Shown: positions 16,832 to 58,355 of the stretch, piece after piece
Layout of the letters: every line of letters begins with the position of its first letter
Numbering within the stretch: position 1 is the first letter of the stretch
Sequence record: OZ209057.1
Origin: Escherichia phage T4
Length of the DNA stretch: 64,000 nt
Strand: one strand, 5' to 3'
The notes under the pieces: generated by a model
What the model was told of the DNA's origin: nothing
Databases searched by the model: none
What the model saw: only the letters and a program-made list of their open reading frames with translations
Translations under genes and position numbers: made by a program

Positions 16832-17620
<789 letters not shown>

Positions 17621-17723
17621 TCATTTATTGCAGCAAAAATGAATTATACAATTCTTCATCATATGTATTTGATAGTAATACTAACACGTTTTGCGATAAA
17701 TATTAATTTAAAGGAGGATATAT

Positions 17724-17924
17724 ATGGTACAAAAATTAATGGCACTTGTTAATGCCATAAAAGGTAATAAGAAACGTATAGCTTTTACTATTTCTGCTAT
17801 GGTAGGAATTTTACTCTGGAACTTTATTTTATCACCTGTTGCAATTGCACATGGTGTTAATATTCCAGTAGTTACTCTTGATACATTCGTAGATTTAGCA
17901 TTTGCTTTAGTTGGGTTAATTTAA
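17724..17924 (+). CDS. plus-strand small membrane protein (66 aa) in dam-61 intergenic gap
   Basis: AAAGGAGG 6 nt upstream of ATG; one predicted TM helix; exactly fills the gap, overlapping the gene 61 stop by 4 nt. Confidence 0.55.
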   Translation: MVQKLMALVNAIKGNKKRIAFTISAMVGILLWNFILSPVAIAHGVNIPVVTLDTFVDLAFALVGLI

Positions 17925-18949
17925 ATCTTAGCATATTTAGATAGCCGCATTTTAGCCATTAACCCCTGGGCAATATTATTTTTCATATATTCCATAATTT
18001 GTTCAGGGGTTGCACCTTCCTTTCTAATCATATCATTAACATCTTTTGATTTCCAGGGAGATTTATCCCAAAACATAACCCTTTCTCCTGCATCAACTAA
18101 TTTAGTCATTCGTTTAATAGTGTCAGGGTGACGAGGTTCATTATCTAAGACCCACACACGTCTATCTTTAAATGGAACAACTTCTAGGTCTAATTGACCG
18201 CCCGTAATAGCTATACCATTTTCAATAAAAAGTGAATCTATAGGTCCTTCTAGAACATATACATCACCATCTTTAACTCGTTCGACTCCATAGATTTTTG
18301 TTGCCTCAGGATAAGCTTTGATGGTGATATATTTTTGAGGAGCATCTTTCTTTAATGCACGTCCTTGAAAAGACTCAGCTTTTCCATTAGCATTATAAAT
18401 TGGAATAACAAGACGAGGCTCAGAAATTTCCTTTTTGTATGTTCCCGGTGCTATGCTATTAACTAATTTAGGCCATTCGGTTGTAAACCAAAGATATTTC
18501 CATTTATCCTTTGGAATACAACGAGCTTTTACGTATTTTATAATTGGATGGTCTTCCGCCAGTTTATCTAATCTAACACATGACGGAAGAGATTTAATTA
18601 TTTTCTTCTCGGGTTGTTTAGGAAGTTCTTTAGGTTTTTCTATTGGACGACTTTTACCTTTTTCTTTTCTTATTTCAAAGATATACTCACGATATAAATC
18701 GGGTTCAAACTCCTTTAAATATATTCCGATTGGTGCATGATAGTTACAGTTATAACAATGAATATTTCCTTCATTATTATCACCATAATACCATCCACGG
18801 GCTTTATTCTGGTCGGTTTTTGAATCTCCACAAACAGGGCATCTAAACCGTAATTTAAAAGTTGAACTATTATTTACTTGTGTGAATTTAGGTAAATGAG
18901 CTAATGCACGGTATGCAAACTCATTATCAATCCAAGGTATTGATGACAT
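17921..18949 (-). CDS. 61: DNA primase gp61
   Basis: 342 aa; zinc finger CPVCGDS...CYNC and TOPRIM EGPIDS. Confidence 0.92.
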   Translation of the reverse strand: MSSIPWIDNEFAYRALAHLPKFTQVNNSSTFKLRFRCPVCGDSKTDQNKARGWYYGDNNEGNIHCYNCNYHAPIGIYLKEFEPDLYREYIFEIRKEKGKSRPIEKPKELPKQPEKKIIKSLPSCVRLDKLAEDHPIIKYVKARCIPKDKWKYLWFTTEWPKLVNSIAPGTYKKEISEPRLVIPIYNANGKAESFQGRALKKDAPQKYITIKAYPEATKIYGVERVKDGDVYVLEGPIDSLFIENGIAITGGQLDLEVVPFKDRRVWVLDNEPRHPDTIKRMTKLVDAGERVMFWDKSPWKSKDVNDMIRKEGATPEQIMEYMKNNIAQGLMAKMRLSKYAKI

Positions 18950-18951
18950 TT

Positions 18952-19116
18952 TTACTCTTCTTTTTCTTTAGATTCCTCTTTTTTCTTTTTAGGAATCTGT
19001 TCAGGACCTTTATTTACTACAGCGCCTGATGTTGTTCCAGTAGAGATATTTTCAGGATTACCACCTGAATCTCCAGCGACCATATCTTCTTTGATAAATT
19101 CTTTAAATGTTTTCAT
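18952..19116 (-). CDS. hypothetical 54-aa protein (61.1 position)
   Basis: hand-translated MKTFKEFIKEDMVAGDSGGNPENIS...; K/E-rich tail. Confidence 0.45.
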   Translation of the reverse strand: MKTFKEFIKEDMVAGDSGGNPENISTGTTSGAVVNKGPEQIPKKKKEESKEKEE

Positions 19117-19117
19117 A

Positions 19118-19744
19118 TTAACCTCTATTCATAAAAGCATTAAAAATTTGGTCATCAATAGAAACATTTACTTTAGGCTGTTTTTCAGATGGCAATTCAT
19201 ATCCACATATTACAATTTTATGATCAATATCAAAATACACAGAAGCAATATGATTAATGATATTTTCAGTAAAGTCTAAATCAACATCAATATCTTTTTG
19301 ACCAAAGCCCAAAGGATAAATAATGCGAGTAATTCGATTATCTTTAACAAAGATTCCACCGACATACTCTGTGCTGCGTTTAAAGTCTACACGCCGACGA
19401 AATGAAAAATATTCAGGCTCTTTATGAGCTCGGCTCATAGGACACAACGAATAACTAGAATAAGAGATGTCAAATCCTACGCCTTCAATATGAACTAAAT
19501 TGTCATGATTAAACCAATTATAATCATATGCCAAGTCCATTAGATTGTCATATGTGAAAGGCACCGGATTAACATCATTGGTCACAAGCATATAATTAGC
19601 AACTGCTATAATTTCATTATTTTTAACGAATACAAACCGTGATTGATGCGAATGGCCTGGACCTGCGTTTTCACGATTAATGATATAACACTGGGCACCT
19701 TTATATTTGTACGTGTCTTTACACTTGTGCATTTGATAAAGCAT
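19118..19744 (-). CDS. hypothetical protein (61.2 position)
   Basis: 208 aa ORF. Confidence 0.55.
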   Translation of the reverse strand: MLYQMHKCKDTYKYKGAQCYIINRENAGPGHSHQSRFVFVKNNEIIAVANYMLVTNDVNPVPFTYDNLMDLAYDYNWFNHDNLVHIEGVGFDISYSSYSLCPMSRAHKEPEYFSFRRRVDFKRSTEYVGGIFVKDNRITRIIYPLGFGQKDIDVDLDFTENIINHIASVYFDIDHKIVICGYELPSEKQPKVNVSIDDQIFNAFMNRG

Positions 19745-20037
19745 TATTCACCTACCACTTCAGCGATGATATTTTTGTTATTAAAGTTTTTATCGAAATA
19801 CAGAACATAATTATACTGCATTACACCACCAGACTTAAGCTGTTTTTGCACTTCAGCTTTCATTTCAGGACGATCACGCTTAACGATATTCATAATATCT
19901 GCTTCAATTTGAGTTTCAACCTCAGTCTGATCCGCAGTCATAGACCATTCGCACAAATCTTTATCATAACCTGCCATAGCAGGCTGAGCAGCACAAGAAG
20001 CTAAAGCAAAAATTGTAGCAAAGATGAATTTTTTCAT
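19744..20037 (-). CDS. sp: Spackle (periplasmic superinfection-exclusion protein)
   Basis: 97 aa; signal peptide MKKFIFATIFALASCAAQPAMA; size matches T4 Sp. Confidence 0.8.
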   Translation of the reverse strand: MKKFIFATIFALASCAAQPAMAGYDKDLCEWSMTADQTEVETQIEADIMNIVKRDRPEMKAEVQKQLKSGGVMQYNYVLYFDKNFNNKNIIAEVVGE

Positions 20038-20065
20038 GATAATCTCCTCAGTAGTTTATGTTTAT

Positions 20066-20095
20066 ATAGTATCTCAATTTCCAACAAAAGTAAAC
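20066..20095 (-). promoter_or_regulatory. early-type promoter GTTTAC-N18-TACTAT
   Basis: plus strand atagta 20066..20071, gtaaac 20090..20095. Confidence 0.5.
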
Positions 20096-20097
20096 AG

Positions 20098-20355
20098 TTA
20101 TTTTAAAATTTCTGCGTAATCACATGTTACAAACTGTTTCTCTAACTTGACGATTTTACGAAAGTATCTTTTGCATTGGCGAATCTGCCTCTTCGTAGGG
20201 CGAACAGCAAACTTAATAAATTCCACTCGACCAAATGGAGGGCTTTCTTCTGCTGGAATATCTAACACCAATTCCCACGTATCTGCAATAAGTGCTTTGA
20301 ATTGCGTATTTTTCCTGACGTTATACGGAGTAGGTTTAAATAAAACAATATGCAT
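20098..20355 (-). CDS. tifA: 61.4-position protein, probably TifA (ToxN inhibitor) as I recall the T4 literature
   Basis: 85 aa from ATG at 20355 with GAGGA Shine-Dalgarno; basic protein next to dmd. Confidence 0.55.
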   Translation of the reverse strand: MHIVLFKPTPYNVRKNTQFKALIADTWELVLDIPAEESPPFGRVEFIKFAVRPTKRQIRQCKRYFRKIVKLEKQFVTCDYAEILK

Positions 20356-20356
20356 A

Positions 20357-20539
20357 TTATCCTCGGCAATCCACTTCACATACTTTCTTGTCATCAATGA
20401 AAGCTTTAACTAATGCTTTATTAACTTCAGCATATTGAGTAGTAGCCCATTGAACGTCATCTTTCATCATTGTGATTTCTTTAGTAAACATGCTTTCATT
20501 CTTAAACCACCCCATAAAAACTACCTTTACCAATTCCAT
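20357..20539 (-). CDS. dmd: Dmd antitoxin (discriminator of mRNA degradation; inhibits RnlA/LsoA)
   Basis: 60 aa MELVKVVFMGWFKNESMF...; matches T4 Dmd as recalled. Confidence 0.88.
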   Translation of the reverse strand: MELVKVVFMGWFKNESMFTKEITMMKDDVQWATTQYAEVNKALVKAFIDDKKVCEVDCRG

Positions 20540-20568
20540 AACAATCTCCTCATTTAACCGACAAGACT

Positions 20569-20598
20569 ACTATACCATAGTCTTGTCAGCTTGTAAAC
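20569..20598 (-). promoter_or_regulatory. early-type promoter GTTTAC-N18-TATAGT
   Basis: plus strand actata 20569..20574, gtaaac 20593..20598. Confidence 0.55.
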
Positions 20599-22025
20599 TA
20601 AAATTTTAATTCATTCGCCAAAGCATCTAACTGAGCTCGAGTCGATTCATTTCTTTGATAGCGATTCTGCTCAGCCTGAATCTGTTGTGAACCTGCTACT
20701 TCGTTCACTTCAGTTGGAGTAGAATCTTGTTCAATTTCTACCCATTTTTGATTTCCTTTTTGAACACCCATCAAAAACTTATTCCACTTATTCTTATCAC
20801 CATATCGTGATTTGATTTGCTTAATGAGTTGTTGTTCAGCAGCTGCTAGCTCCTCGGTTTCAATGACCGCAAGCATAAAATCGGCTGTTGCTGGAAGACC
20901 GGCAGATTCTGCAATATCGCTCATGTTAACATCGGAAGAGTCCCAAGCTTGTTTACCAACCTGTGCTGCAGTCCAAAGAACAGTTTCGGTTTCAACAGCC
21001 AGAGCACGTAATTCCTCTGCAATAGCTTTAACAGTTGTGTAACTATTTTCTGAATAAACTCTAATGCGGCAAGATTTACAAATACCTAGATAGTCGACAA
21101 TAATGATTGTTGGAACAAAATTCTTCTTGAGCTTCAATTCGTTTAAAAGTGATCGAAATGTATTAGCGTCTGCTCCACCAGTAGGATACTGTTTAACGAT
21201 TAAACGACCAAGAGTAGATTTCTCACGCCATTTTTCCATTTTTCCTTTATACTCAGCGTAAGAAATATGCCCATCATCAATGTCATCAAGAGAAACATCA
21301 AGCATATTAGCGTCAATACGTTTAGCACAGACTTCTTCTGCCATTTCCATGGAAATGTAAAGAACATTATGTCCGAGCTGTAAATAATCTGCCGCTAATG
21401 AACACAATCCTAATGATTTACCAACGTTAACGCCAGCCATTAAAACGTTCAGTGTTCCAGTTTCAGCTCCGCCTTTCGTAATTTTGTTCAGAATTCTGAG
21501 TTTAAATGGAACCTTACGAGCTTTATTCATATAAGATAGCCAACGTGCTTCGTAGTCATCCATCCAATCATGACCAACGTAACTATCAAATGAAATTGAT
21601 AATGCCTGGCGCATGATGTCAGGAATAGCACCAACATCCGGCATTTTCTTATTTCGTTTTTCCGGAGGAAGCTCAGCATTAGTTTGAATTTCGATTATTT
21701 TAGACGTAGCATTAAACATCGCCCTTTGCTGAACATATTTTTCTGTTTCTTTTACTAACCAGCTGTGGTCTTCCGGAGAATCAGCCAGTTTTGAAATAAG
21801 TGTTTTTACACCAGAATATTCTGTTTCAGTAAATGAACTATTTTCTAATGCAACATTTAACGCATTAATAGATGGAACGCTATGGTACTCATTAACATGA
21901 GATTTAATTAATTTGAATGTATTTTTAGCTGGACCACTTTCAAAATATTCTGAATCCATATATGGCCAAACTTTTGAAAAATAAGCTTGATCAAATATGA
22001 GATGAGAAAGAATAATTTCTACCAC
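20598..22025 (-). CDS. 41: replicative DNA helicase gp41 (DnaB-like)
   Basis: 475 aa; Walker A GVNVGKS; length matches. Confidence 0.92.
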   Translation of the reverse strand: MVEIILSHLIFDQAYFSKVWPYMDSEYFESGPAKNTFKLIKSHVNEYHSVPSINALNVALENSSFTETEYSGVKTLISKLADSPEDHSWLVKETEKYVQQRAMFNATSKIIEIQTNAELPPEKRNKKMPDVGAIPDIMRQALSISFDSYVGHDWMDDYEARWLSYMNKARKVPFKLRILNKITKGGAETGTLNVLMAGVNVGKSLGLCSLAADYLQLGHNVLYISMEMAEEVCAKRIDANMLDVSLDDIDDGHISYAEYKGKMEKWREKSTLGRLIVKQYPTGGADANTFRSLLNELKLKKNFVPTIIIVDYLGICKSCRIRVYSENSYTTVKAIAEELRALAVETETVLWTAAQVGKQAWDSSDVNMSDIAESAGLPATADFMLAVIETEELAAAEQQLIKQIKSRYGDKNKWNKFLMGVQKGNQKWVEIEQDSTPTEVNEVAGSQQIQAEQNRYQRNESTRAQLDALANELKF

Positions 22026-22034
22026 ACTTACTCC

Positions 22035-22397
22035 TTAAAAGAATTTAAATTTTTTCTTTGACCTTTTATTAAATGCATCTTGCAGTTGCATTGTAATACA
22101 TTTTTCTACATGAGGAGCTAACTCAGCTTTTCTTTCTTGGTCAAGAACAGCAAAGTCCATTACAACCTTTCCATCAACCCAATCCAGTTTAGTTACATAC
22201 ACTATATGCGTAGAACCATCTTCTAGTTTAATGACAATCTCCTGGATAACATTTTCCATAGCAGATTTAATTATCTTAAGAGACTCATTAAAAAGACGTT
22301 CTTTTCTTTCTTCTTCCCCCTCCGAAGAGGGGGATTCATCGATAATTTCTAGATCTAAATCTAAATCATCTTTATTCATTAAATTCTTCCATATCAC
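22035..22397 (-). CDS. 40: gp40 head-assembly membrane-associated protein
   Basis: 120 aa ORF between uvsX and 41. Confidence 0.65.
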   Translation of the reverse strand: MIWKNLMNKDDLDLDLEIIDESPSSEGEEERKERLFNESLKIIKSAMENVIQEIVIKLEDGSTHIVYVTKLDWVDGKVVMDFAVLDQERKAELAPHVEKCITMQLQDAFNKRSKKKFKFF

Positions 22398-24385: not shown

Positions 24386-24603
24386 TTATAAATCAATAGC
24401 TTTTTTGAACGCATCTTGCCATTCGGCTAATCATTAACATCTACTTCATCAAAAGATTTAGTGTAAACACCATTTTTAAGAGAAATAATGTCGACATTAA
24501 GACCCATTTCAGAAATAACTTTAAAAAGATAAATAGTTTCAGAAGATGGAACAGTTTTAAAATTAATAACATTATTACCCATATTAATTATAGCAATTTT
24601 CAT
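24386..24603 (-). pseudogene. bgt: beta-glucosyltransferase remnant: 58 N-terminal codons then TAG, joined out of frame to the last 13 codons (AEWQDAFKKAIDL)
   Basis: hand translation from ATG 24603 gives MKIAIINMGNNVINFKTVPSSETIYLFKVISEMGLNVDIISLKNGVYTKSFDEVDVND*; stop at 24427..24429; C-terminal codons present in a shifted frame. Confidence 0.8.
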
Positions 24604-57967: not shown

Positions 57968-58189
57968 TTATTCGAGGGAAAGAAGATACTTACTCTGGTA
58001 AAACATTCCAGTAATATCATCTATCGTGCTTTGGATGGCTGGAGGCATTTCTTTATAAATGCTGTTAGATTGGTCTAGTATGCGATCAATCATTTTAATT
58101 GTGTCGGTAGGAAGTTTACTGGCATCTGGAATTGAAGGCGTGTATTTTCGACCAGAATACCCCAAATATTGCTCACCCAAATTTATCAA
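57968..58189 (-). CDS. hypothetical small protein
   Basis: 73 aa ORF. Confidence 0.5.
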
Positions 58190-58355
58190 TCAAATCTGGC
58201 AACTCGGAAAAAATAAAATCGTATGCTTTGGGTCTAGCATAACTTTTAGTTTCAAAATGTGCAGAATGAAAATAAGCTTGTGCAGCCATTAATAAACCTA
58301 AGTATTCATCTGCCTTTGAAGGTTTTCCACTTTGTGAAAAGTCGCTGAATTTCAT
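58173..58355 (-). CDS. hypothetical small protein (rI.-1 position)
   Basis: 60 aa ORF. Confidence 0.5.
   Translation of the reverse strand: MKFSDFSQSGKPSKADEYLGLLMAAQAYFHSAHFETKSYARPKAYDFIFSELPDLIDKFG

Follow-up and report, generated by a model that had tools for sequence, protein, structure and literature searches.

What does a segment of fewer than a thousand base pairs in the early region of a T4 genome contribute to the protection of the infecting phage, and are the genes in it read separately or together? The question is raised by the interval 19744–20539 of the 64-kb stretch of DNA analysed here (the window). A preliminary description, made from the sequence alone, had taken this interval to be a packed locus of three counter-defence or exclusion functions, consisting of dmd, an ORF at the 61.4 position taken to be TifA and the gene of the periplasmic protein Spackle.

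The interval contains three consecutive minus-strand genes, dmd, 61.4/tifA and sp, the last encoding Spackle. The preliminary description had left their strand unstated. The interval extends from dmd, whose ATG starts at 20539, to the final stop-codon base of sp at 19744, and 92% of its 796 bp are coding. In a megablast search of 50,697 phage records the surrounding region 19100–20700 gave a 100% match to OZ209023.1 and 99.9% identity to the remaining T4 records. OZ209023.1 is a record from France of an Escherichia phage T4 mutant with T4MUT_ALPHAGT locus tags. AF158101, HM137666 and MT984581 carry the same ORFs under the names dmd, 61.4 and sp, in matching order and at matching coordinates, with gene 41 as the upstream flank and 61.2, 61.1 and 61 downstream. 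The interval is almost certainly T4's dmd–tifA–sp segment, which belongs to the early region lying between genes 41 and 61, both of them replication genes, and we met no evidence contradicting the gene identities. Several ORFs are also open on the plus strand, for example 20147–20413 (88 aa) and 19643–19810 (55 aa); they are unannotated in T4 records and were taken as antisense shadows.

The first gene, dmd (gene 61.5; 20357–20539, minus strand), encodes an acidic protein of 60 aa according to the ORF list and is preceded by a strong Shine–Dalgarno sequence, GAGGAG. The protein is a full-length member of Pfam PF17587 (E = 1.6e-46) and is the same at 60 of 60 residues as chain B of PDB entry 5HY3 ('Antitoxin Dmd'), that is, without any difference from the Dmd of the Dmd–LsoA complex. 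These two matches bear out its designation as the antitoxin against RnlA and LsoA. The preliminary description had named altered RnlA-binding residues as a point that would speak against this designation; because the identity to 5HY3 chain B extends over all 60 positions, the binding residues cannot differ. RnlA and LsoA are HEPN RNase toxins of the host; Dmd binds to them and blocks their action, and thereby stands in for the labile host antitoxin (PMC9391042, PMC8266594). Its binding site on both toxins is the groove lying between the N-repeated domain and the HEPN domain (PMC8266594).

The second gene, tifA (gene 61.4; 20098–20355, minus strand), is 258 nt long and encodes 85 aa from its ATG, upstream of which lies a GAGGA Shine–Dalgarno sequence. 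An exact look-up returned the sequence of T4 gp61.4 (AAD42511.1 / ADJ39754.1). The protein is basic (K+R 17 vs D+E 9, pI 9.83) and matches PF23945 DUF7279 with E = 2.3e-20, while no PDB structure was found for it at E ≤ 1; homologues of tifA are present in 674 phage records. Guegler et al. (NAR 2023, PMC10853763) mutated F41, R52, P53, T54, K55, R56 and R59 of TifA and assigned F41 to the ToxN interface, P53-T54 to a helix cap and R52, K55, R56 and R59 to a basic set. All seven residues are at their published positions in the window ORF. The exact match to AAD42511.1, together with the presence of all residues that the TifA studies single out, establishes that the ORF at the 61.4 position is TifA, the ToxN inhibitor, as had been proposed. 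The tifA mRNA also contains a GAAAU motif at nt 244.

Srikant, Guegler & Laub (eLife 2022, PMC9391042) described TifA as an inhibitor of ToxN, a type III toxin, and found that TifA acts as a protein and not as an RNA and that ToxN co-immunoprecipitates with it. Its basic C-terminal helix, P53–R59, binds RNA and ToxN together, and the toxin becomes trapped in a ribonucleoprotein complex in which 16S rRNA is abundant (PMC10853763). A single native copy of tifA protects against chromosomal toxIN and fails against plasmid-borne toxIN (PMC9391042). The segmental amplification of dmd–tifA that T4 undergoes under selection can be understood from this, because one copy does not suffice against the plasmid system. 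The cluster was also studied in later work on SegB-dependent amplification. In T2, T6 and RB69 tifA likewise adjoins dmd (PMC9391042).

How the two genes join differs from the first account, in which dmd was said to overlap the start of the 85-aa ORF. On the minus strand the junction reads GGA TAA T ATG CAT, with the dmd stop codon at 20359–20357 and the tifA ATG at 20355–20353, so the two are separated by a gap of 1 nt and the overlap is absent. A true overlap is found at the other end of the interval, between sp and 61.2, where the ATG of the downstream gene lies over the sp stop codon in the sequence TAATG at 19746–19742.

The third gene, sp (gene 61.3; 19744–20037, minus strand), encodes Spackle, 97 aa, here in a C81F allele. 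The protein matches Pfam PF25676 (E = 2.2e-42) and is identical to PDB 6X6O at 96 of 97 residues, the sole difference being residue 81; the family match and this identity confirm the periplasmic Spackle that had been proposed for the position. The T4 Spackle structures (6X6O / 6XC0 / 6XC1 / 7CN6 / 7CN7) share with the window protein the signal peptide, the Pfam family and 96 of 97 residues but have at position 81 a disulfide-forming Cys where the window has Phe. The signal peptide is readily recognized as MKK followed by a hydrophobic core and AMA|G, an AxA site after residue 22, and N-terminal sequencing places cleavage at exactly this point, leaving a mature protein of 75 aa (PMC7677548 / PMC7650644). 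The wild-type protein binds the gp5 lysozyme domain 1:1 and acts as an inhibitor of gp5 while leaving T4 lysozyme uninhibited, and Cys29–Cys81 is the sole disulfide of its mature form (PMC7677548 / PMC7650644). Exported wild-type Spackle loses its 22-residue signal peptide and engages the lysozyme domain of gp5, and this binding blocks digestion of the cell wall, whether by free gp5 or by the tail tips of phages that superinfect. Kanamaru et al. favoured a role chiefly in the inhibition of free gp5 rather than in exclusion, and overexpression of Spackle left the titre unchanged in their hands (PMC7677548 / PMC7650644).

The difference at residue 81 deserves a closer look. Over 17600–22200 the window departs from T4T and MT984581 at one base only, 19796, within sp codon 81 (minus-strand gene; on the plus strand A in the window vs C elsewhere), which changes TGC to TTC and Cys81 to Phe. 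The surrounding 60-mer is present in 393 phage records, and a single one of them, OZ209023.1, has the C81F allele. The exact C81F protein is also held under a second NCBI accession and encoded on 38 contigs assembled from public runs, and because of these occurrences we regard C81F as a real lineage marker and not as a one-off sequencing error. Cys29 and Cys81 are kept in all 19 aligned relatives, down to 52% identity. Searching 1.84 billion representatives with a profile gave further homologues, and all of those covering position 81 have Cys there, including the most distant one, P0072 (E = 1.8e-10). The window protein lacks the conserved Cys29–Cys81 disulfide of the Spackle family, its residue 81 being Phe; it is a family member in mutant form and not a non-member.

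It follows from C81F that the C29–C81 disulfide cannot form and that C29 is left unpaired. Might Spackle then be defective here? In that case the substitution would destabilize or misfold the exported protein, and the stock would be an sp mutant that keeps its anti-toxin functions but has no exclusion or anti-gp5 activity. The loss of the only disulfide of Spackle argues for this, as does the conservation of C81 throughout the other homologues with coverage at this site. Phe is moreover a large, non-conservative replacement, C29 would stay unpaired in an oxidizing periplasm, and the allele is as rare as its single occurrence among the phage records with the segment indicates. On the other hand, DTT does not prevent Spackle and gp5 from forming their complex in vitro, the disulfide was judged to be without a role in complexing, and it is ~40% reduced in the crystal of the complex (PMC7677548 / PMC7650644). 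The 38 contigs also suggest that a stock with this allele propagates well, a weak point given that sp is non-essential. On balance a defective Spackle is a distinct possibility towards which we do not lean, and we give functional impairment of the C81F protein about a third of the weight.

The many other mutations in the same strain are a further consideration in favour of a defect. Relative to T4T the whole 64 kb contains 17 substitutions (ten are G:C>A:T transitions, and most of the 17 are non-synonymous), two single-base indels near rI.-1 and an 838-bp deletion inside the β-glucosyltransferase (β-gt) gene. The window lineage looks mutagenized and/or engineered in the laboratory, and C81F may be a passenger mutation.

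The preliminary description had also given each of the three genes an early promoter of its own. We searched for the shape of T4 early promoters, GTTTAC-N18-TANNNT, i.e., a GTTTAC(A/T) −35 element and a TAnnnT −10 element at a spacing of ~17 nt. The pattern has 19 matches in the 64-kb window, all on the minus strand, vs 0.97 expected, and just two of them are inside the locus. The first, at 20569–20598 (minus strand) before dmd, reads GTTTACA ... TGGTATAGT and begins on the final base of the gene 41 stop codon, which supplies its first G; a sigma-70 scan detects the same site as TTTACA-17-TATAGT with 10/12 matches and a TG upstream. The second, an early-type promoter match at 20066–20095 (minus strand), reads GTTTACT ... 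GATACTAT and lies within the 60-nt tifA–sp spacer; its 8/12 matches leave it below the cut-off of the generic sigma-70 scan. PMC9391042 mentions 'a promoter downstream of tifA'. Between the dmd ATG and the tifA ATG (minus strand, 20356–20539) no promoter shape was found in T4-early, sigma-70 or MotA-box scans, and no MotA-box-shaped site occurs inside 19744–20539. A separate promoter for tifA was rejected on these negative scans, a GTTTACT within dmd (20490–20484) being without a usable −10. Two early promoters were thus found, before dmd and before sp, and tifA has none of its own. The dmd–tifA pair is a published two-gene operon (PMC9391042).

Sequence and literature together suggest that dmd and tifA are transcribed as one bicistronic message from the early promoter right after gene 41 and that the promoter in the tifA–sp spacer adds transcription of sp, adfA, 61.1 and 61. 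A structured RNA or a terminator within the locus was considered and discarded: 18800–20800 shows no terminator shape and no Rfam match at E ≤ 1. Because there is no terminator and the intergenic gaps downstream of sp measure 0–2 nt, read-through from both promoters into the following genes is likely. As far as the sequence allows one to say, transcripts from both would probably continue through adfA, 61.1 and 61.

The gene that overlaps the sp stop codon, adfA (gene 61.2; 19118–19744, minus strand), encodes anti-DarT factor A. It lies outside the interval 19744–20539 and had been missed at first. Its product of 208 aa is a full-length match to PF23813 AdfA (E = 3.8e-137), and 61.2 is, as adfA, a member of the same published island (PMC9391042). 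T4 encodes an active AdfA allele, which blocks DarT1 when supplied in trans, since ectopic expression restores the infectivity of RB69 on DarTG1 cells; T4 lacking adfA is still resistant to DarTG1, even when adfN is missing as well, i.e., no phenotype was detected for the deletion (PMC11257639). The substitution R164H, in RB69 numbering, enables AdfA to neutralize DarT1 (PMC11257639). The window protein has N164 and H165, and equating H165 with position 164 of RB69 AdfA would assume a one-residue numbering offset.

To what extent do these genes form a functional unit? They are small, closely packed accessory genes that each neutralize a different threat soon after infection, and the same five-gene string is found on independent contigs. 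Of the packed counter-defence and exclusion locus that had been proposed, the three assignments and the packing hold, whereas the dmd/tifA overlap and the three promoters have to be given up. The published mutant phenotypes are a block of T4 Δdmd on rnlAB+ hosts, a block of T4 ΔtifA on hosts with chromosomal toxIN and, for sp mutants, a loss of resistance to lysis from without. Srikant et al. grouped dmd, tifA and adfA as a possible 'anti-TA island' (PMC9391042). The locus is this known T4 system itself, with the same DNA, genes, order, sizes and operon and with 100% identical Dmd and TifA; the published island counts dmd, tifA and adfA and omits sp, and only the strain background differs.

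The word 'island' could still be a bookkeeping label for neighbouring early accessory genes with unrelated jobs, brought together by the general packing between replication genes. The targets do differ, being an HEPN RNase, a type III RNase, the phage's own tail lysozyme and an ADP-ribosyltransferase that acts on DNA. Spackle, which is no anti-toxin, works in the periplasm on a phage protein rather than on a host defence. Every gap between the replication genes of the region is filled by small ORFs of unknown function, and co-transcription has been shown for dmd and tifA only (PMC9391042). Against this, three of four consecutive genes (dmd, tifA and adfA) each neutralize the toxin of a TA defence, an arrangement that the authors of the island found suggestive (PMC9391042), and the adjacency of dmd and tifA extends to T2, T6 and RB69. 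We therefore consider a mere label somewhat unlikely and keep to the clustered counter-defence genes described above, with the proviso that co-location of genes is no proof of functional coupling.

Such clusters have a parallel elsewhere. Anti-CRISPR and anti-restriction islands likewise bring together small early inhibitors of different immune systems, with a content that varies between relatives. Unlike anti-CRISPR loci, the T4 cluster has no evident Aca-like dedicated regulator, and its targets are the toxins of toxin-antitoxin systems. A further difference from anti-CRISPR and anti-restriction islands is Spackle, whose site of action is the periplasm and whose target is a phage protein. 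The analogy itself is that of PMC9391042.

The amino terminus of Spackle offers a separate observation. Its signal peptide carries a lipobox, L-A-S-C15, after MKK and a short hydrophobic stretch. The classical lipoprotein pattern (PROSITE PS00013) fits the window allele and the 19 relatives aligned with it, and Ser14-Cys15 is invariant in these 20 while adjacent positions of the signal peptide vary. On this sequence evidence some of the native Spackle might be lipid-anchored at Cys15, and because the +2 position is without Asp the anchored form would be routed to the outer membrane. The inhibitor would then be placed where the incoming tail tip presents gp5, and the soluble form starting at Gly23 would be the product recovered after overexpression. 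This is improbable, however, since N-terminal sequencing puts the cleavage after residue 22 (PMC7677548 / PMC7650644), two laboratories recovered soluble protein, and the P0072 signal peptide has no Cys and yet keeps AxA|G and both disulfide cysteines. No link between Spackle and lipidation was found in the searchable literature. Export of Spackle by way of the AxA site after residue 22 is the reading that we retain.

Finally, a start of tifA at an in-frame TTG (20397) or ATG (20394), giving a 98–99-aa protein that overlaps the end of dmd, can be set aside as very improbable for want of a Shine–Dalgarno sequence before either codon and because deletion of the tifA ATG abolishes activity while a recoded 258-nt gene is fully active (PMC9391042): the ORF is indeed open back to the TTG at 20397, some gene calls of 93 and 98 aa occur among clusters of TifA-like proteins and a second, lower band was seen on the TifA-FLAG western blot (PMC9391042), but GAGGA is well spaced before the 85-aa ATG, all T4 records compared annotate 61.4 with 85 aa, and the additional band runs smaller than TifA, not larger.

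The locus adds no new biology and duplicates published work. The C81F allele of Spackle is the single detail of it for which we found no published description in the literature searched; the remainder is already known. For a genome bearing this allele the Spackle part of the functional description may be untrue, and work on superinfection exclusion, lysis inhibition or lysis from without that employs a C81F stock would do well to check it for the behaviour of an sp mutant.

The Spackle protein encoded by this T4 stock carries a phenylalanine in place of Cys81 (sp codon 81, window 19796), which removes one partner of the sole disulfide of the protein, Cys29–Cys81. A cysteine at this position is kept in all other homologues found that cover it. 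The Phe81 allele occurs in 1 of 393 phage records and on 38 contigs assembled from public runs. At the other end of the protein, the signal peptide (first 15 sp codons, window 19993–20037) contains a canonical lipobox, L-A-S-C15, whose Ser14-Cys15 pair is invariant in all 20 aligned sequences, while the motif is missing from the most distant Spackle homologue. Lipidation of Spackle is nevertheless disfavoured by published N-terminal sequencing, which placed the cleavage after residue 22.

Over the 64 kb of the window, 17 substitutions separate this phage from T4T (HM137666), most of them non-synonymous and 10 of them G:C>A:T transitions. The changes relative to HM137666 include dexA P174L (window 8374), dda A392T (9542) and imm.1 D67N (25962); the DNA polymerase, gene 43, has two non-synonymous changes, G354D (27981) and G52S (28888), and the clamp loader gene 44 has one, S18F (30962). 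Such a spectrum of changes is suggestive of a laboratory lineage that went through chemical mutagenesis, although part of the differences may instead be peculiar to T4T. Around rI.-1 (window 57941 and 58176–58231), the window has an intergenic 1-nt deletion relative to T4T and, inside the gene, a T>G change together with a 1-nt insertion that would shift the reading frame. A different situation applies to two positions where window and T4T agree against the older reference AF158101.6, namely Pro62 versus Leu in adfA (window 19118–19744) and Thr26 versus Ile in 61.1; here the errors or strain differences probably lie on the side of the old reference and not of the window.

Gene 61.1 (window 18952–19116) is a 54-aa ORF whose product has a tail rich in Lys and Glu. 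It matched no Pfam family, and the PHROGs it matched are all of unknown function, making it the sole gene in the string from dmd to 61 without an assigned role; neighbours such as 61.1 have been named as anti-toxin candidates (Srikant, Guegler & Laub 2022, PMC9391042). MotA-box-shaped, middle-promoter-like sites occur on the minus strand in two places: where adfA ends, ahead of 61.1 (19115–19139), and where gene 41 ends, upstream of the early promoter of dmd (20603–20625). The pattern is poorly specific, with 45 matches against 24.6 expected.

The β-glucosyltransferase gene (b-gt) has suffered an internal deletion of 838 bp, the junction at window 24419–24430 corresponding to HM137666 24429–25266, and its TGA stop codon has become TGG through a T>C change in the window. 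In the window, α-gt is unchanged relative to T4T, and yet the matching record, OZ209023.1 from a T4 laboratory mutant, uses T4MUT_ALPHAGT in its locus tags. A possible meaning of this tag is that the phage retains α-glucosylation alone.
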